IMG/VR virus record: IMGVR_UViG_2737471861_000012
Coordinates: 1-14,718 of that record
Strand: one strand, 5' to 3'
DNA length: 14,718 nucleotides
Source of the DNA: a virus
Taxonomy: Duplodnaviria > Heunggongvirae > Uroviricota > Caudoviricetes
The position numbers were made by a program, and so were the translations under genes. Below, in pieces: positions 1,914-11,473 of the stretch. Below the pieces are notes generated by a model, which saw only the letters and a program-made list of their open reading frames with translations, ran no database searches and had not been told where the DNA came from. Each line of letters opens with the position of its first letter. Positions within the stretch are counted from its first letter, which is position 1.

Positions 1914-2457
1914 GCATCACTGGAAAGTGGAAAAACAACCTGACTGGTACGTGAAAGCTGTCAGAAAAACTATCGCGGCATTGCCAGGTGGTTACGCTGA
2001 AGCTGCTGAGTGGCTGGATGTAACAGAGAACGCTTTATTCAACCGCCTTCGTGCCGATGGTGATCAGTTTTTTCCGTTGGGATGGGCAATGGTTTTACAG
2101 CGTGCGGCTAGTACTCATCACATTGCGGATGCTGTCGCACAGTCTGCTGGTGGGGTGTTTGTATCACTTCCTGAAATTGAGGAAGTAGAGAACGCTGATA
2201 TCAACCAACGTCTACTGGAAGTCATTGAACAGATCGGGAGTTACTCAAAGCAGATTCGTTCGGCAATCGAAGATGGGGTAGTGGAGCCACATGAACAGAC
2301 AGCAATTAATGATGAGTTGTATCTGTCAATTTCGAAGCTCCAGGAGCATGCAGCACTGTTCTACAAAATCTTCTGCGCTTCAGAAAAGAGTGACGCCCGC
2401 GAGTGTGCAGCTCCGGGCGTCGTGGCGTTTTGTGTCCGTGGAGAAACTAACGCATGA
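1906..2457 (+). CDS. CII-like early regulatory protein (function putative)
   Basis: 183-aa ORF with GTG start at 1906, preceded by AGGAGG and overlapping the cro stop; it sits where cII-type regulators lie in lambdoid phages. Family assignment is from position and general resemblance only. Confidence 0.6.
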   Translation: MGKHHWKVEKQPDWYVKAVRKTIAALPGGYAEAAEWLDVTENALFNRLRADGDQFFPLGWAMVLQRAASTHHIADAVAQSAGGVFVSLPEIEEVENADINQRLLEVIEQIGSYSKQIRSAIEDGVVEPHEQTAINDELYLSISKLQEHAALFYKIFCASEKSDARECAAPGVVAFCVRGETNA

Positions 2458-2782
2458 ACAGTTTAACGGCAAATAACCGTTTGTCGCAACAGTTGGTGGT
2501 CAGTGTCGCTGCACACCTGTTGTTACGGCATGAATGCAGATTACCAAATCACCTGGCTGTAAGTAACCACAGAGAACTTTACCTGACTGTGGGGGGCGAG
2601 TTGTGCAGGAACTTAACCGCTGGTTTCGTGACGGAAGAGGACTTTATGTTCATGTTATTCGTTGGGAGCCAGAAACACAGCGCGTTATCTATCTTCGCAA
2701 AGACTACCCGCATGAGTGCTTTAGTCCTTTGTGGAAATTCAGGCGTGATTTTGTTGAGTGTGAAGGACCACCAGCACATTGA
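2454..2782 (+). pseudogene. Possible frameshifted small gene: ATG 2454 (frame 0, ATGA overlap with upstream stop) joined at a G6 tract (2591-2596) to a frame +2 ORF ending 2782
   Basis: The frame-0 ORF starts with the same ATGA coupling seen across this operon. A protein-like frame +2 ORF (VQELNRWFRDGRGLYVHVIRWEPETQRVIYLRKDYPHECFSPLWKFRRDFVECEGPPAH) begins right after a GGGGGG homopolymer. Combined length would be about 109 aa. Confidence 0.25.
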
Positions 2783-3056
2783 TTCTGCCATTCCGGGACG
2801 TTACACTGTTCAGGCACCTTATAAAGCGGGTGCCGGGATTGGCGTCCTGGAATTGCATACGGCGACAATGGGCGCGTTAGCGTCTTTTTTGTTGCTACAG
2901 CTCAGCTATACCCAAATTATGGTGGGCTGGGTGGGGGCACCGAAAGGTGCGCCGGTTTCCGTATGCGCCGGTTACGCCAACCCTGCTCAGTTCACCACCA
3001 GCGAAATTGGCGTTTCCGGTGGTGGAAGTTATCCATTGCATACGGAGGCTGCCATC

Positions 3057-3602
3057 ATGGCTACGATCCCAACCCTCACTCAACCTGAAATTGCCATCGT
3101 TGATGGTCAGGCTGTTACTTCATCCCTGGCTGTAGCCAACTTCTTTTCCAAACGTCATGACGATGTACTGAAAAAGATCCGCACGCTTGAATGCTCCGCA
3201 TCATTCACTGCCCGCAATTTTTCGGTGAGTGATTACACCGATTGCACAGGCCGCAAACTACCTTGCTATCAAATAACCCGCGACGGCTTTGCGTTTCTTG
3301 CTATGGGTTTCACGGGGAAACGTGCTGCCCAGTTCAAAGAGGCATACATCAATGCCTTTAACCAGATGGAGAAACAGCTTTTAAAGCCCTCTGTACCGAG
3401 CGACGTTGCACATAACGCCAGCGTTCTCTGTTCCTACATTTCATCAATTCATCAGGTCTGGCTGCAGCAGCTTTATCCTATGTTGGCAAAAGCCGAATCT
3501 CCGCTGGCTGTTAGCTTGTATGACTATATTAATGATGCTTCGGCACTGGCCTGCCTCATAAATTTGTCGCTGAACCCTTCAGAGGTAAGGGGGCGCAAAT
3601 GA
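3057..3602 (+). CDS. rha: Rha-family phage regulatory protein
   Basis: N-terminus MATIPTLTQPEIAIVDGQAVTSSLAVANFFSKRHDDVLKKIRTLE matches the Rha domain pattern; GGAGG RBS at about 3043-3047. The 382-aa ORF in the track (2454-3602) is judged an artefactual upstream extension in the same frame. Confidence 0.8.
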   Translation: MATIPTLTQPEIAIVDGQAVTSSLAVANFFSKRHDDVLKKIRTLECSASFTARNFSVSDYTDCTGRKLPCYQITRDGFAFLAMGFTGKRAAQFKEAYINAFNQMEKQLLKPSVPSDVAHNASVLCSYISSIHQVWLQQLYPMLAKAESPLAVSLYDYINDASALACLINLSLNPSEVRGRK

Positions 3603-3823
3603 TCCGGAATATTTTCAAACGGTTTACCAATCATACTTTCCGTTGTCCTCGTCCGGGTCAGTGGTACACCACGCCTGCAGGGCATGTTCTACGTGTTAGC
3701 CTGGTTGACCGTGAATGTCAGAAGGTGATTTGTGAACCGCTGGGCCGTAATTACCGCGTCAGTATGCCGCTTATAGCCTTTTGCTCCGGAAAAAACATGA
3801 AGCATCTCGGAGGTGCAGCATGA
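3599..3823 (+). CDS. Small hypothetical protein (74 aa, four Cys), translationally coupled
   Basis: ATG overlaps the Rha stop (ATGA) and its stop overlaps the next gene's start (ATGA); no family recognised. Confidence 0.45.
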   Translation: MIRNIFKRFTNHTFRCPRPGQWYTTPAGHVLRVSLVDRECQKVICEPLGRNYRVSMPLIAFCSGKNMKHLGGAA

Positions 3824-4638
3824 GTATGGAGCTGATGGTTAAAGCGATGAAAATTCGAGTGGGTAATCCATTGCGAAAACTGGTTCTGATCAAGCTGGCT
3901 GATAATGCCAGCGATCAGGGTGAGTGCTGGCCCAGCTACCAGCATATTGCTGACCAGTGCGAGATTAGCAAACGTTCTGTGATGAATCATATTGCGGCCC
4001 TTTGTGAGTCCGGGCTGGTAAAAAAAGTCACCCGGAAAGGTGAAAAAGGTAACTCAAGTAATATCTATCTCCTTCATCTGGATGGTGCAGGAGATTCACT
4101 AGGGGGTAGTGCAAATAATTCACTATCTGGTGCAGCAAATTCACCAGGTAGTGCAGGAGTTGCACCAGGGGGTGGTGCAGGAGATTCACCCAGAACCAGT
4201 CACTCTTTTGAACCAGTCAAAGAACCAGTCAATGAACCAATAGCTGTTGGTGCATCAGTTGATGAGTCCATGCGAGTTCGTTCAAACCGACCGGAATACT
4301 CTCCGGAGTTTGAGCAGGCATGGCTGGCATATCCCAAACGTGCTGGTGGCAATTCAAAATCTGCAGCCTTCAAAGCCTGGAAAGCCCGTTTGAATGAGGG
4401 GGTAAAACCCGAAACCATGCTGGAAGGTGTGAAACGCTACGCGGGCTGGGTATCTGCGATGGGTAACAGCGGCACACAATTTGTGAAACAGGCTGTCACG
4501 TTCTTTGGTCCGGATCGTCATTTCGAAGAATCCTGGGAAGTTCCTGCGGTATCTGCAGCCAGACGCGAGGACCCGTACTTCAAAGCCAGTTACGACAACG
4601 TGGACTACAGCCAGATCCCGGCAGGATTCAGGGGGTGA
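3820..4638 (+). CDS. O-like replication initiator: N-terminal winged-helix DNA-binding domain, Gly/Ser/Ala-rich linker encoded by iterons, C-terminal domain
   Basis: Start ATG 3820 with GGAGG upstream. N-terminal LRKLVLIKLADNASDQGECWPSYQHIADQCEISKRSVMNHIAALCESGLVKK resembles HTH_36-type phage replication initiator domains. An internal array of 5 iteron-like repeats lies in the linker-coding region, as in lambda O. Confidence 0.65.
   Translation: MSMELMVKAMKIRVGNPLRKLVLIKLADNASDQGECWPSYQHIADQCEISKRSVMNHIAALCESGLVKKVTRKGEKGNSSNIYLLHLDGAGDSLGGSANNSLSGAANSPGSAGVAPGGGAGDSPRTSHSFEPVKEPVNEPIAVGASVDESMRVRSNRPEYSPEFEQAWLAYPKRAGGNSKSAAFKAWKARLNEGVKPETMLEGVKRYAGWVSAMGNSGTQFVKQAVTFFGPDRHFEESWEVPAVSAARREDPYFKASYDNVDYSQIPAGFRG
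4085..4189. repeat. Iteron array (candidate origin of replication) inside the O-like gene
   Basis: Five copies of GTGCA-N5/6-T(T/G)CAC (gtgcaggagattcac 4085-4099, gtgcaaataattcac 4109-4123, gtgcagcaaattcac 4130-4144, gtgcaggagttgcac 4151-4165, gtgcaggagattcac 4175-4189) at 21-24 bp spacing, followed by three GAACCAGTCA repeats (about 4191-4235). Confidence 0.55.
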
Positions 4639-4640
4639 TT

Positions 4641-5129
4641 ATGAGTCTTTTGAATGAAGTTCAGAAATTCATTGAAGCCCATCCGGGGTGTACTTCCGGA
4701 GACATTGCGGATGCTTTTGCTGGTTACTCACGGCAGCGCGTTCTGCAGTCAGCAAGCAAGTTACGTCAGAGTGGGCGTGTGGCTCACCGTTGTGAAGGAG
4801 ATACACGCAGACATTTCCCGCGCCTGACTGAGAGAGCGCAGGAGCCGGAACCACAATCTGTTCGTGAAACCAGACCTGTGCGCAATTTCTATGTCGGCAC
4901 TAACGATCCCCGTGTGATTTTGTGCCTGACCCGCCAGGCTGAAGAACTGGAGTCCAGGGGCTTATACCGTCGTGCTGCAACGGTGTGGATGGCGGCATTC
5001 CGTGAAAGCCACTCCCAGCCAGAACGAAACAATTTTCTGGCGCGTCGTGAGCAGTGTTTACGGAAAAGCAGCAAGTGCGCTGTATCGGGTGATGAGTGGT
5101 ATCTGTCAGGGAATTACGTGGGGGCTTAA
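4641..5129 (+). CDS. PerC-family transcriptional regulator-like protein with N-terminal winged-helix-like extension
   Basis: Segment AEELESRGLYRRAATVWMAAFRESHSQPERNNFLARREQCLRK fits the PerC/Pch signature (LE..GLWRRAA..W ... RR..CL). Start ATG 4641, 3 nt after the previous stop. Confidence 0.55.
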   Translation: MSLLNEVQKFIEAHPGCTSGDIADAFAGYSRQRVLQSASKLRQSGRVAHRCEGDTRRHFPRLTERAQEPEPQSVRETRPVRNFYVGTNDPRVILCLTRQAEELESRGLYRRAATVWMAAFRESHSQPERNNFLARREQCLRKSSKCAVSGDEWYLSGNYVGA

Positions 5130-5455
5130 TGACGACGTTAACTCAATGCCAGCAGCAGGTGCTGGATATGCTGATTTCTTATCAGAAAGAACGTGGTTTC
5201 CCGCCAACCAATCAGGAGGTGGCAGCCATGCTGGGATACCGTTCGGTGAATGCAGCGGTGGAGCATCTTCGCGCACTGGAGAAAAAAGGCGTCATCACGA
5301 TAAAGCGTGGCGTGGCCCGGGGTATCACGTTTCATACCACAGTGAAGGACGACGACAGCGAGGCAGCCGGGATTATCCGCGCACTGCTTGCCGGTGAGGA
5401 AAACGCCAGACTGCGTGCAGCCCACTGGTTACATGAGAGGGGCCTGAAAGTATGA
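5129..5455 (+). CDS. LexA DNA-binding-domain-like protein (winged helix only, no peptidase domain)
   Basis: LTQCQQQVLDMLISYQKERGFPPTNQEVAAMLGYRSVNAAVEHLRALEKKGVITIKRGVARGI closely follows the LexA N-terminal domain pattern (PPT..E....G..S.NAA.EHL.AL..KG.I). ATG overlaps the previous stop (TAATG). No GDSM/KR peptidase motifs. Confidence 0.65.
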   Translation: MTTLTQCQQQVLDMLISYQKERGFPPTNQEVAAMLGYRSVNAAVEHLRALEKKGVITIKRGVARGITFHTTVKDDDSEAAGIIRALLAGEENARLRAAHWLHERGLKV

Positions 5456-7655: not shown

Positions 7656-7672
7656 TTTTGTGGAGAAAGTTG

Positions 7673-8035
7673 ATGCGTGATATTCAGATGGTTCTGGATC
7701 GTTGGGGTGCATGGGCGGCGAGTGATAGTTCTGGGGTAGACTATTCGCCTATAGCTGCTGGGTTTAAAGGGCTTCTTCCCTATACAAGCAAAACACGTCA
7801 GGCTTGTTCAGATAGTGATGCATTAATTATTGAAGGTTGTCTTGCTCGTCTAAAGCAAAAAAGACCTGAAGAACACTCGCTTCTTGTTGCCCATTACCTA
7901 TACGGTATCTCTAAAAGAAAGCTCGCTAAAGCTCGCAAAAAGGATGAGAAAATAATACGCATTGAGATACAGATGGCTGAGGGATTTATAGAAGGTTGTC
8001 TAGCTATTCTAAATGTTAGCTTAGATATGGATTAA
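7673..8035 (+). CDS. Q-like late-gene antiterminator (small Q family of the QuuD / phage 82 type)
   Basis: MRDIQMVLDRWGAWAA...AGFKGL...IIEGCLARLK...AEGFIEGCLAILNVSLDMD matches the small Q antiterminator pattern; GGAGAAAG RBS. The 3-prime two-thirds of the gene is AT-rich like the downstream cargo. Confidence 0.75.
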   Translation: MRDIQMVLDRWGAWAASDSSGVDYSPIAAGFKGLLPYTSKTRQACSDSDALIIEGCLARLKQKRPEEHSLLVAHYLYGISKRKLAKARKKDEKIIRIEIQMAEGFIEGCLAILNVSLDMD

Positions 8036-8078: not shown

Positions 8079-8531
8079 TTATATGTGGGGTAATATCCAG
8101 TTTATTTTCCTCCAGGTACTTGCAAATGAAACTATTGATACGATCAGGGTCGAGAAACCATATAAGGTTAGGGCGAAATCAAGTCTTACAGAGGTAATGG
8201 TGATTTTTTCATTTATAAACATTGCTATCAGCGGGAAAATACATGCTAATATTAAGGTAACTCCCGTAGATAACAGGTTATGAATAATTTTAGGTAAAAT
8301 CTTGTTTTGTTTTAAAGCAAAAATAATTCCATCAGTACTTGAACTTGCAGAACTGAAGATGGAAATAGCGGCCAATACAAAACCAAACAAAATGCCTGCC
8401 ACCGTAGATAACACTCCGGCTGTACTTAAGATATCAGAGTGAGCCATAGGCGCTAGGTATTTCCCAAGCACCCAAGCTAACAGCCCACTGATAACTATGT
8501 TAATTAAAACTTTAATAAGCATAATCATCAT
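8079..8531 (-). CDS. Small integral membrane protein, four predicted TM helices; second gene of the AT-rich cassette (RexB-like architecture, hypothesis)
   Basis: 147-150 aa with four hydrophobic segments (IKVLINIVISGLLAWVLGKYL; ILSTAGVLSTVAGILFGFVLAAISIF; LSTGVTLILACIFPLIAMFI; LDFALTLYGFSTLIVSIVSFA). Likely start is the ATG at 8520-8522, preceded by AAGGA, 14 nt downstream of the partner gene. AT-rich codon usage unlike the flanking genes. Confidence 0.7.
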   Translation of the reverse strand: MMIMLIKVLINIVISGLLAWVLGKYLAPMAHSDILSTAGVLSTVAGILFGFVLAAISIFSSASSSTDGIIFALKQNKILPKIIHNLLSTGVTLILACIFPLIAMFINEKITITSVRLDFALTLYGFSTLIVSIVSFASTWRKINWILPHI

Positions 8532-8545
8532 CCTTAAAAATAAGA

Positions 8546-9478
8546 TCAGATTTCATATTGCTTTAAATACTGACCATGTTCAATTTTAGCACTGATCAAG
8601 GCAGTACGCACATCTGTTTCTTTTGCGTAGCCATCTTTTGTGTTAATGTTTTTTTCACTGATCAGAACTTGATTGAGAAGACTCCTTGAATGAGTATTTT
8701 TAGGTTCAGTGACATTAGCTTTACGTAATAAGTGAGGAACTTTTTCTATTAATTCCTTTATTCCACTTTTTACTTCATCACTGAGATAACCACGGATTAA
8801 TTTACGTTGCGATGCTCTACCTCTAAGTGATAGTTTTAAATGCGAACCGCCCATCCCAGCCATCATTTCAATCATACTTTTGGAAAATGAATTCGAAAGG
8901 TCATAATCCGTTGCGCTAAAATTACGTGGAGCGGCGAGTGTAATTTCACAGCTACGTAAAGTGCTTCCTGTTTCAAGTAGTTCTTTTACACTTTCTTTTT
9001 TCCAAATTGCCTCAAACGCTACAGGTTTGTTTTCTTCAGAAAAATTGAATAAAAGAAATGCTAAATCGGAAACTTTAGGTCCTAAATGATTTTGAGATAA
9101 AACAAGAATGTCTTTCTTATAGTAGTAAATAAAATAAGTACGTTCGACTATATATTTTTTATCATCTAACGGAATATTGTGCTCATCCCAATTTTCATCA
9201 CCAATATAAGGTAAGTGGAAACCATCACGAGAGCATGATAGATAACCAAAATAGAACTCCGCCTGTGCGTCTTTTTCTAAGAATACAATCTTTAATTTTT
9301 TCTTATCAAACTCAGCGGTATAAGAATTTTGCGAAGGTGTAACAATGGTTGTATACATGTTGTCAAATGCAAGTTGTGCATTTGATGTAGTTGACTTCGT
9401 TCCTGAGGAGCTTTGGAAGAAACCGATACGCATTTTTTTTTGTTTAGTTAGTGGCGCGGAAGTGGCTGTAGTAGTCAT
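8546..9478 (-). CDS. Hypothetical soluble ~310-aa protein; first gene of the AT-rich two-gene cassette (candidate abortive-infection / exclusion component, RexA-like by architecture only)
   Basis: Long minus-strand ORF with an AAGGG RBS-like sequence upstream; Lys/Tyr/Asn-rich and AT-rich; no nucleotidyltransferase, HEPN or TIR motif recognisable by eye. Opposite orientation to all flanking phage genes. Confidence 0.7.
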   Translation of the reverse strand: MTTTATSAPLTKQKKMRIGFFQSSSGTKSTTSNAQLAFDNMYTTIVTPSQNSYTAEFDKKKLKIVFLEKDAQAEFYFGYLSCSRDGFHLPYIGDENWDEHNIPLDDKKYIVERTYFIYYYKKDILVLSQNHLGPKVSDLAFLLFNFSEENKPVAFEAIWKKESVKELLETGSTLRSCEITLAAPRNFSATDYDLSNSFSKSMIEMMAGMGGSHLKLSLRGRASQRKLIRGYLSDEVKSGIKELIEKVPHLLRKANVTEPKNTHSRSLLNQVLISEKNINTKDGYAKETDVRTALISAKIEHGQYLKQYEI

Positions 9479-10132: not shown

Positions 10133-11179
10133 ATGAAAAATACTGTAAAAATAAACAGTGTTGATTTAATCAACGCTGATTGCCTGCATTTTATTCAGTC
10201 CCTGCCTGATGATTCCATTGACCTGATTGTTACCGATCCGCCGTACTTCAAGGTGAAACCCAACGGCTGGGACAATCAGTGGAAAGGGGACGAAGATTAC
10301 CTTAAGTGGCTGGACCACTGTCTGGCCCAGTTCTGGCGGGTGTTAAAACCTGCCGGAAGCCTTTACCTGTTCTGTGGTCATCGCCTGGCATCTGATACCG
10401 AAATCATGATGCGTGAACGCTTTAATGTACTGAACCACATTATCTGGGCGAAGCCGTCCGGACGCTGGAACGGGTGCAACAAGGAAAGCCTGCGGGCGTA
10501 TTTCCCGGCAACAGAACGCATTCTGTTTGCCGAACATTATCAGGGGCCATATCAGCCAAAAAATGACGGCTATGCGGCAAAAGGGCGCGAGCTTAAGCAG
10601 CACGTAATGGCCCCGCTGATTGCTTACTTTCGTGATGCGCGTGAATCACTGGGGATAACGTCAAAACAGATAGCAGAAGCCACCGGAAAGAAAAACATGG
10701 CTTCGCACTGGTTTGGTACCAGTCAGTGGCAGTTACCGAATGAGGCCGATTACAGTAAACTGCAGGCGTTGTTTGCGCGTGTTGCGGCAGAAAAACACCA
10801 GCGCGGTGAACTGGAGCAGCCACACCACCAGCTGGTCAGCACATACAGCGAACTGAACCGGCAATATGCCAGCCTGCTGGAGGAATACAAATCACTGCGG
10901 CGTTATTTTTCCGTATCGGCTGTTGTTCCTTATACGGATGTCTGGACGCACAAGCCCGTGCAGTTTTATCCGGGTAAGCATCCCTGTGAAAAACCGGCGG
11001 ATATGTTGCGTCAGATAATTACTGCCAGCAGCCGTCCGGGCGATTTGGTCGCAGATTTTTTTATGGGGTCGGGGTCGACAATAAAAGCGGCACTGTCGCT
11101 GGGACGCAGGGCGATTGGCGTGGAACTGGAAGAGGAGCGTTTTAATCAGACGGTCAGAGAAATAACGAAAGATTTTTAA
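10133..11179 (+). CDS. Orphan DNA methyltransferase (beta-class N6-adenine or N4-cytosine)
   Basis: DPPY catalytic motif (LIVTDPPYF) is N-terminal and the FxGxG SAM-binding motif (FFMGSGST) is C-terminal; no adjacent restriction endonuclease gene. Confidence 0.85.
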   Translation: MKNTVKINSVDLINADCLHFIQSLPDDSIDLIVTDPPYFKVKPNGWDNQWKGDEDYLKWLDHCLAQFWRVLKPAGSLYLFCGHRLASDTEIMMRERFNVLNHIIWAKPSGRWNGCNKESLRAYFPATERILFAEHYQGPYQPKNDGYAAKGRELKQHVMAPLIAYFRDARESLGITSKQIAEATGKKNMASHWFGTSQWQLPNEADYSKLQALFARVAAEKHQRGELEQPHHQLVSTYSELNRQYASLLEEYKSLRRYFSVSAVVPYTDVWTHKPVQFYPGKHPCEKPADMLRQIITASSRPGDLVADFFMGSGSTIKAALSLGRRAIGVELEEERFNQTVREITKDF

Positions 11180-11396: not shown

Positions 11397-11473
11397 GCGG
11401 GTATCGTATAATGGCTATTACCTCAGCTTTCCAGGCTGATGATGTGGGTTCGATTCCCGCCACCCGCTCTCCA
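11397..11473 (+). tRNA. tRNA-Gly(UCC)-like gene
   Basis: Cloverleaf can be drawn: acceptor GCGGGTA/CACCCGC (one A-C mismatch at 7-66), D-arm GTAT-AATGGCTA-TTAC, anticodon stem TCAGC/GCTGA with loop TTTCCAG (anticodon TCC), T-arm GTGGG-TTCGATT-CCCGC. Very similar to my recollection of E. coli glyT, with a compensatory 6-67 base-pair change. 3-prime end reads TCTCCA rather than TCCA. Confidence 0.65.

Follow-up and report, generated by a model that had tools for sequence, protein, structure and literature searches.

Where does a lambdoid prophage begin to replicate its DNA when its replication gene is unrelated in sequence to lambda O? The question is raised by a stretch of 14,718 nucleotides (nt) from the virus record IMGVR_UViG_2737471861_000012, hereafter the window, which is the early-to-lysis segment of an Escherichia coli lambdoid prophage. 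Within its cI-cro-cII-...-Q early operon lies the gene for a 272-amino-acid (aa) replication initiator, an open reading frame (ORF) on the + strand (3820–4638, ATG at 3820 and stop at 4638), and the middle of this gene carries a set of short repeats, or iterons, followed by a conserved block. From the sequence of the window, the original prediction had proposed that the interval 4085–4240, the coordinates of which proved accurate, is a candidate origin organized like that of lambda. Comparison across ~190 related loci supports this reading, as it shows the repeats to be under selection as DNA and to co-vary with the recognition helix of the initiator. We consider it very probable that this prophage, of the SfV/mEp460 type (‘Eru6’), has its replication origin at 4085–4240, within the part of its own initiator gene that codes for a putatively disordered linker.

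The iteron pattern GTGCANNNNNTKCAC (GTGCA-N5-TKCAC) matches the + strand of the window five times, with starts at 4085, 4109, 4130, 4151, and 4175 and spacings of 24, 21, 21, and 24 bp. By chance 0.09 matches would be expected in the whole window, and none of 200 shuffles scored as high, so pattern search and shuffling both bear out the five iterons at 21–24 bp spacing that had been predicted. Iteron 1 (GTGCAGGAGATTCAC, 4085–4099) is followed by iteron 2 (GTGCAAATAATTCAC, 4109–4123) and iteron 3 (GTGCAGCAAATTCAC, 4130–4144), all on the + strand; iteron 4 (GTGCAGGAGTTGCAC, 4151–4165) is a perfect palindrome and thus present on both strands, and iteron 5 (4175–4189, + strand), identical to iteron 1 (GTGCAGGAGATTCAC), abuts the conserved block. 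The predicted form GTGCA...TCAC fits the four copies that end in TTCAC and is slightly loose for the fourth, which ends in TGCAC. Apart from this perfect copy, each 15-mer is an imperfect palindrome, with half-sites GTGCA and TKCAC 10 bp apart from centre to centre. The five iterons occupy codons 89–124, and together with the GAACCAGTCA repeats that follow they occupy codons 89–140 of 272, encoding GAGDSLGGSANNSLSGAANSPGSAGVAPGGGAGDSPRTSHSFEPVKEPVNEP. The window thus has at least three dyad-symmetric repeats, spaced by about two helical turns, inside the initiator ORF, as a lambda-type origin does.

The initiator itself is 98.9% identical in aa sequence to SfV orf39, annotated as ‘replication protein’, and its other counterparts are mEp460 gp43 and the helix-turn-helix (HTH) protein of ‘Eru6’ Shiga toxin (Stx) phages. 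At the nt level, the initiator region is 98.4–98.9% identical to mEp460 and Stx2a_WGPS2 and 98.4% identical to AP012537; AP012537/Stx2a_WGPS2 is the ‘Eru6’ representative in a typing of Stx phage replication regions that records the HTH_36 motif with no mention of iterons or an origin (PMC8951638). The protein matches Pfam HTH_36 (PF13730) at 1.8e-11, with 44.1 bits against a cut-off of 25, and PHROG 270, ‘replication initiation protein’, at 9.5e-88, while its Pfam DnaD_N score of 24.3 bits falls under the 27-bit cut-off. A domain above its gathering score and near-identity to Stx2a_WGPS2 together place the protein in HTH_36, PHROG 270, and ‘Eru6’. No such relation was found to lambda O: the lambda O model TIGR01610, which scores 132.6 bits on lambda O, has no match on the initiator, nor does Pfam Phage_rep_O, and BLASTP against lambda O is not significant. 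These comparisons indicate that the initiator is not a lambda O homologue but an HTH_36/DnaD-N-like winged-helix protein, so that calling the gene ‘O-like’, as had been done, is right for its function and wrong for its sequence.

AlphaFold2 predicts three parts. The N-terminal domain (residues 1–88, coded by 3820–4083, + strand) is modeled as a winged helix of four helices and a β-hairpin wing, with a predicted local distance difference test (pLDDT) of 80–93, and its recognition helix spans about residues 51–64 (ISKRSVMNHIAALC). A Foldseek search returned only winged-helix domains, including DnaD-N (2v79); the E-values are weak and the matches generic because two thirds of the model is of low confidence. 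The N-domain thus looks like a generic winged helix, to which, on these weak scores, DnaD-N comes nearest among replication proteins. Residues 91–157, between the winged-helix domain and the helical C-terminal domain, have a pLDDT of ~30–37, which agrees with the earlier placement of the iterons in linker-coding sequence; disorder of this peptide is indicative only, because the AlphaFold2 alignment was shallow (27 sequences, ≥67% identity). The C-terminal domain (about residues 160–272, coded by 4297–4635, + strand) is predicted to be helical over residues 162–224 (pLDDT ~70–78) and matches PHROG families labeled ‘replication protein’, ‘DnaD-like helicase loader’, and ‘primosomal protein’. A sequence search against solved structures found no relative of the initiator. 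The C-domain is an exchangeable module and presumably the helicase-recruiting part of the protein.

Because all repeats of the window are in the same frame, its sequence by itself does not tell DNA sites from a repeated peptide, and the case for DNA sites rests on relatives. These were collected in three ways: by tblastn on phage records, by a protein-seeded scan of one genome per species (56 loci), and by a scan of viral contigs with an exact 29-nt block. Every relative in the N-domain family carries two to seven, usually at least three, dyad-symmetric repeats of 15–20 bp right after the part coding for the winged helix. In the 230-nt linker windows searched across the set (14,950 nt), the pattern GTGMA-N5-TKCAC has 111 matches, spread over 26 loci, whereas the remaining 230,690 nt of the loci searched have none. 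Eleven of these 111 copies stand in another reading frame, where they encode VQQIHQ instead of SAGDSL. Pseudomonas prophages (L020–L025) with the recognition helix of the window (ISKRSVMNHIxxLC) keep GTGCA-N5-TKCAC, with the second copy shifted by one base so that it reads VVQEIHQ rather than SAGDSL. In a Microbulbifer locus (L031), the window iteron recurs three times as its exact reverse complement, GTGAATCTCCTGCAC, which encodes GESPAP, and in some Pseudomonas arrays both orientations are mixed. The distant initiators of VibD79 and mEp013 have repeats of their own in alternating frames. These comparisons show that selection acts on the repeats as DNA, and the pairing with the recognition helix described below ties them to the encoded initiator; both are expected of a lambda-type origin.

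The layout of the two distant loci can be given in more detail. In mEp013 (L013), four GTGWCAC..GTCAC repeats in alternating frames are followed by AACCAGTCA and AACCAGTAA and then by an AT-rich run. In Vibrio phage D79 (L009), the repeat is GTGACAGAGAGTCAC, present five times with a change of frame at the last copy, and CCTAACA repeats follow in place of the block.

If the repeats are binding sites of the initiator, their sequence should follow the residues that would read them, and this held when non-identical loci were grouped by repeat class and by how the recognition helix begins. Helices of type [KRE]R[ST][VA] go with class A repeats (GTGMA-N5-TKCAC) in 58/59 loci, the sole exception being an Erwinia locus with the helix ISKRSVMRHIDDL and the repeat GTGAC-N5-GTCAC. 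RSTVK helices go with GGGGCRG..CC in 14/15 loci, the KSAV, KTAV, HSTV, and HSSV types with TRTGCC-N6-9-GCA in 23/23, and IDRSTVR with TGTAGGC... in 8/8; arrays that differ from that of the window include the F451-type (GGGGCAGGAGCTGCCC) and the S135-type (CTGTGCC..GCACA). The correspondence between iteron class and recognition helix is thus nearly perfect, almost one to one, as expected of sites that the initiator would bind, and it lends the candidate-origin reading the support across relatives that the window could not give by itself.

Natural hybrids separate the two halves of the gene. In three of them (P0062, P0068, and P0072), a foreign N-domain with its own repeats is joined to a C-domain almost identical to that of the window. 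As the N-domain keeps its own iterons while the C-domain is swapped, the repeats travel with the N-domain. Relatives with other C-domains also have different partner genes, encoding a primase-helicase in F451, Min27, SI5, and S135, a DnaB-like helicase in ZF40, and a P-like protein in RAH1, so that the C-domain looks like an adaptor to the helicase system. The gene after the initiator accordingly varies with the C-domain and is either absent or of the primase-helicase, DnaB-like, or P-like kind. These three hybrids and those in L005–L007 and L010–L012 join at the conserved block.

Iteron number varies widely among close relatives. E. coli initiators that are 86–98% identical have 2, 5, 7, 8, or 9 iterons, the 5-copy form being the commonest (a cluster of 2852 members), and a similar copy-number difference, four versus six iterons, is known between the O genes of lambda and Stx phages (PMC7466680). 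Near-identical initiators (P0001, P0003, P0020, P0024, P0028, and P0039) also vary in having two to four EPVxEP (AACCAGTCA) units. In a 247-aa allele (P0039), both ends of the deletion lie at GGTGCA, the second copy of which is at 4249–4254 of the window.

Directly after iteron 5 begins the conserved core (4190–4239, + strand), which reads CC-AGAACCAGTCAC-TCTTTT-GAACCAGTCAA-A-GAACCAGTCAA-TGAACCA and which we regard as a candidate unwinding or helicase-entry element. The three GAACCAGTCA repeats that had been reported after the iterons are exact, at 4193, 4210, and 4222 (spacing 17 and 12); only two further matches with one mismatch occur in the window, and no shuffle reached five. The three AACCAGTCA units of the core start at 4194, 4211, and 4223. 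The core shared across the family is ~37 bp, CC-AGAACCAGTCAC-TCTTTT-GAACCAGTCAA-N-GAACC, and it is present with zero to three mismatches in most relatives retrieved by protein similarity. Exact AACCAGTCA units are grouped in twos and threes, with five as the maximum, at the fixed spacings of 17 and 12 bp, and the last iteron always abuts the block (..CACCC followed at once by AGAACC). A search of viral contigs with the exact 29-nt block alone returned at least 119 stretches; in all 78 usable contigs, the block lay in frame in such an initiator gene, directly after the iteron array.

Loci retrieved by the block are unfit for measuring its conservation, and protein-retrieved sets were used instead. 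The set comprised 51 relatives found by protein similarity, with dereplication to below 90% nt identity. Their N-domains use two to six codons for a conserved residue, the major codon accounting on average for a fraction of 0.52. Against this N-domain mean of 52%, codon choice is 100% fixed at 10 of the first 12 codons of the block. The stretch CCC AGA ACC AGT CAC TCT TTT GAA uses one codon for the majority residue at all eight positions (for example, AGA 43/43, AGT 43/43, TCT 42/42, and GAA 46/46), and the next two positions are nearly as uniform (CCA 37/42 and GTC 40/43). This fixation spans high-GC Pseudomonas, Vibrio, Shewanella, Marinomonas, Xenorhabdus, and enterics. Nor is the peptide what is kept: four Shewanella loci (L056, L058, L061, and L062) retain CCCAGAACCAGTCAC-TTTAGAACCAGTCAATGAA and read it as HPEPVTLEPVNE in another frame, and in the window the first copy of the block repeat is read R-T-S-H, the second and third E-P-V. 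By these measures, the GAACCAGTCA part is the most conserved DNA of the gene, and selection on the block acts at the nucleotide level.

A second element of fixed position lies upstream of the block. The 7-bp sequence AGGGGGT, or its reverse complement ACCCCCT, occurs at −25 to −19 from the block whatever the iteron class; in the window it stands at 4167–4173, and reading of the sequence finds another copy in the first 24-bp spacing (4101–4107). A G5 or C5 run starts exactly at −24 in 51/62 dereplicated origins (33 GGGGG and 18 CCCCC), flanked by A in 95% and T in 97%. Anywhere between −34 and −14, such a run is found in 53/62 dereplicated origins versus 24/310 background windows. That the block sequence is fixed suggests that the sequence itself is recognized, and not just that the duplex melts readily. 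As a tentative proposal, somewhat less likely to be right than wrong, the core and the fixed A-G5-T/A-C5-T spacer could be a universal sequence-specific initiation element of a very large family of Gammaproteobacteria phage origins with differing iterons. Its reader might be the conserved H1–H3 face of the HTH_36 domain, for instance on single-stranded DNA (ssDNA), much as TrfA acts on the unwinding element of RK2, or else a host factor that is conserved. If this is true, unwinding would be directed by sequence and not driven by AT content.

Several observations weigh against the origin reading. A lambda-type origin has an AT-rich unwinding region adjoining its iterons, and no strongly AT-rich tract is present here: GC content is 43% over the 46 nt that follow iteron 5 and likewise in the block, whose duplex instability ranks only at the 84th percentile within the window, and the left flank (4020–4075) is less stable than the block and the least stable part of the gene. 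Some E. coli alleles have only two iterons (P0028, 64 contigs), and the 247-aa allele P0039 has neither iteron 5 nor any of the block. In the window, all five iterons are in one reading frame, with spacings that are multiples of three. Recovery of some loci relied in part on conservation of the block, the unbiased figures being those from protein-based retrieval. Finally, in the literature searched, there is no experimental report of binding or origin activity for this initiator family.

How these points are weighed depends on what else the array and the block could be, and the alternative that fares best concerns the block. We consider it unlikely, though the best placed of the rivals, that 4190–4239 is a shared recombination junction at which N-domain-plus-iteron modules and C-domain modules are swapped and is no part of the origin. 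The block does lie exactly at the module boundary where P0062, P0068, and P0072 switch partners, and relatives with the block in common have different C-domains and partner helicase genes. However, in Enterobacterales, Pseudomonas, Vibrio, Shewanella, Marinomonas, and Xenorhabdus alike, the synonymous sites of ~37 bp hardly vary, even as N-domains diverge down to 40–70% aa identity, and such invariance requires uninterrupted purifying selection, which evolvability alone can hardly supply. The block is also organized internally, its AACCAGTCA units standing at fixed 17- and 12-bp spacing and varying in copy number; it stays in register with both the last iteron and the G5/C5 element; and distant mEp013 retains AACCAGTCA/AACCAGTAA in yet another frame. 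Junction and origin roles could moreover coexist.

Less probable again, at roughly one chance in ten, is that the initiator does bind the repeats in a role other than that of an origin, with the true origin elsewhere; the array might titrate the initiator, or act as a transcriptional roadblock through which the replication operon regulates itself. Co-variation with the recognition helix proves only a cognate pair of protein and site and not origin function, and no AT-rich unwinding tract adjoins the sites. Yet the identical position and layout is that of a proven origin in lambda (PMC5043065), and the array always lies at a fixed distance from a second nucleotide-conserved element, for which a simple operator would have no need. 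No other repeat array was noticed in the loci, where only the class A pattern was counted outside the linker (0 matches). Here too the two roles, autoregulation and origin function, may coexist. That the array is merely a low-complexity Gly/Ser/Ala/Pro linker expanded by replication slippage, with no function as DNA, is hardly credible: it would suit the in-frame repeats of the window with their spacings in multiples of three, the predicted disorder, and the varying copy number, but the motif is kept in other frames or on the other strand where it encodes unrelated peptides, its conserved positions cut across codon boundaries, its class follows the recognition helix, and the synonymous sites of the block are fixed.

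Further candidates were rejected. An RNA element is not indicated, as Rfam has no match in 4085–4240 and folding as RNA or ssDNA is no better than that of shuffles (z −1.2 and −0.8). An overlapping gene does not account for the synonymous conservation, as both other frames have stops inside the block and the flanks are variable modules. No promoter-like sites were found in 3500–4800, and the one terminator-like site there is at chance level.

Taking 4085–4240 as the origin, we infer binding, unwinding, helicase loading, and origin activity as follows. Early rightward transcription would yield the 272-aa initiator, whose N-terminal winged-helix dimers would bind the five pseudo-palindromic iterons in a complex resembling the lambda ‘O-some’; with the iterons about two helical turns apart, the bound dimers would lie on one face of the DNA. 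Stress from this complex, together with transcription through the gene, would then open the adjoining block of AACCAGTCA repeats, and by analogy with plasmid Rep proteins at unwinding elements, the initiator may hold one strand of the block. The exchangeable C-domain would recruit the host helicase, presumably through host DnaB/DnaC; no P, DnaC, or helicase gene lies downstream.

The nearest parallel is ori-lambda, and comparison with the annotated lambda record showed the same layout except for the AT-rich tract and the protein family. The lambda record has four 18-bp palindromic iterons in O codons 117–144, with spacings of 20/24/23 bp and phases 0, 2, 2, and 1, followed by a tract of 26% GC; the five 15-bp pseudo-palindromes in codons 89–124 of the window match this layout, as had been proposed. 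In both, the initiator gene codes first for a DNA-binding N-domain and last for an exchangeable C-domain, and four to six palindromic repeats, spaced by about two helical turns, occupy the linker-coding stretch between them; the gene itself follows cII in the early right operon. In ori-lambda and its Stx phage relatives, as here, copy number varies and lengthens the protein (PMC5043065, PMC7466680). In contrast, the window initiator is unrelated to O in sequence and its iterons differ from those of lambda; a 43% GC block of AACCAGTCA repeats takes the place of the 40-bp AT-rich region (26% GC); the phage has no P-like gene; and the window iterons keep one frame where lambda uses several phases.

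For lambda, P22, and L, the rule has been stated that distantly related origin-binding proteins bind different iterons inside their own coding regions (PMC8022706). The gene 18 origins of P22 and phage L, compared by description only, share with the window repeats inside the initiator gene (PMC8022706) and differ in repeat sequence, in initiator subfamily, and in being paired with a DnaB-type helicase gene (gene 12). Iteron plasmids offer an analogy: RK2 oriV/TrfA and F oriS/RepE likewise combine a winged-helix initiator with direct repeats at ~22 bp spacing and short repeated elements adjoining. In the unwinding-region repeats (13-mers) of plasmids, sequence and not just AT content is needed, and these repeats are bound strand-specifically by the Rep protein (PMC4081077); a like binding of ssDNA by the window initiator is speculation. 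Plasmid iterons, however, lie outside the rep gene, and AT-rich 13-mer unwinding elements and DnaA boxes are usual there, none of which were seen in the window; reading of 4020–4260 gave no match to TTATCCACA, with no formal DnaA-box scan made. With one predicted winged-helix domain where Rep proteins of that type have two, iterons inside the gene, and no AT-rich tract, the window does not belong with iteron-plasmid Rep origins. DnaD and phage ‘DnaD-like’ replisome organizers resemble the initiator in DnaD_N similarity, the 2v79 Foldseek match, and the PHROG helicase-loader matches to the C-domain, all of them weak, whereas DnaD is a host primosome scaffold without an iteron array of its own.

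Also in keeping with an origin, the same module is found on circular, probably extrachromosomal phage genomes of 40–45 kb. Phage-sized circles (40–48 kb) deposited as plasmids carry the initiator module in E. coli, Klebsiella, Microbulbifer, Shewanella, and many Arsenophonus strains, and for the one record inspected (NZ_CP148393, 44.6 kb; H112/L191), PLSDB lists no replicon type. Such records are probably extrachromosomal or induced phage genomes, or phage-plasmids.

An origin inside the initiator gene is itself an expected layout, given the rule stated for lambda, P22, and L (PMC8022706). No description of this origin was found in the open-access full texts searched, which did not cover the 2002 SfV genome paper, where repeats might be mentioned; the published ‘Eru’ typing lists the HTH_36 gene and no origin (PMC8951638), and literal-string matches to GAACCAGTCA, GTGCAGGAGATTCAC, and AGAACCAGTCAC in the literature are unrelated PCR primers. 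Within the same searches, the conserved block and the fixed-position A-G5-T/A-C5-T spacer appear to be undescribed. What is added is thus an architecture for the whole family, consisting of specificity-coded iterons, a G5/C5 spacer, and an ultra-conserved core that is not AT-rich. The module is carried by Stx2c and some Stx2a phages, the Shigella serotype-converting phage SfV, Salmonella ST64B, and the cdt-I phage, and how much toxin a Stx phage yields has been linked to its replication type (PMC4645166). A defined origin would provide targets for replication and incompatibility studies; the correspondence of helix and iteron class would amount to a natural recognition code for one winged-helix family; and the core offers both a testable case of sequence-specific origin opening and a compact 29-nt probe with which such origins can be found directly in sequence data.

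The surroundings of the initiator gene are widespread. The segment 3600–4700 is 98–99% identical to phage mEp460, Stx2c phages, Stx2a_WGPS2, phage cdtI, and many E. coli prophages; it has matches in 2722/5426 complete E. coli genomes (about half), and 884 have most of the module. Upstream in the window are genes for an S24 CI repressor (863–1555, − strand), Cro (1653–1913), a CP76-type CII (1906–2457), a Rha/Ash antirepressor region (2454–3602, where Pfam labels one long ORF Ash plus Rha), and a 74-aa ORF (3599–3823). Downstream of the initiator (4635–5455), no helicase, P-like, DnaC, or helicase-loader gene is found; the genes there encode a PerC/YfdN-like protein (activator; 4635–5129) and a LexA-like protein with the LexA DNA-binding domain (5096–5455). 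In mEp460, ST64B, and the 44.6-kb circle NZ_CP148393, a methyltransferase or PAPS-reductase-like gene that the window lacks stands between these two. RusA, KilA-N, and DUF968/HNH proteins follow the LexA-like gene, ahead of the Q antiterminator (7658–8035), and after Q come two reverse-strand cargo genes, a methylase, a tRNA-Gly, holins, and an endolysin.

Inside the long ORF 2454–3602, Rfam places isrK (2814–2890, 61.8 bits) and a C4 antisense RNA (2915–3002, 80.7 bits), both on the + strand and above their gathering scores. The interval 2814–3002 looks like an antirepressor control unit of the P1/P7 immI type (c4-icd-ant) or of the Gifsy isrK type, and the true start of the antirepressor ORF is probably downstream of these RNAs. 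Between Q and the methylase, 8079–9478 (− strand) holds two genes, for a 150-aa protein with no family match and a 310-aa DUF6731 protein, at a position typical of moron or defence cargo; PADLOC has no match for either protein. The methylase is a type II-like DNA methyltransferase (10133–11179; PADLOC MTase_II, 4.6e-150) with no neighbouring nuclease detected, and it is followed, just upstream of the holin and endolysin genes, by tRNA-Gly(TCC) at 11397–11469.

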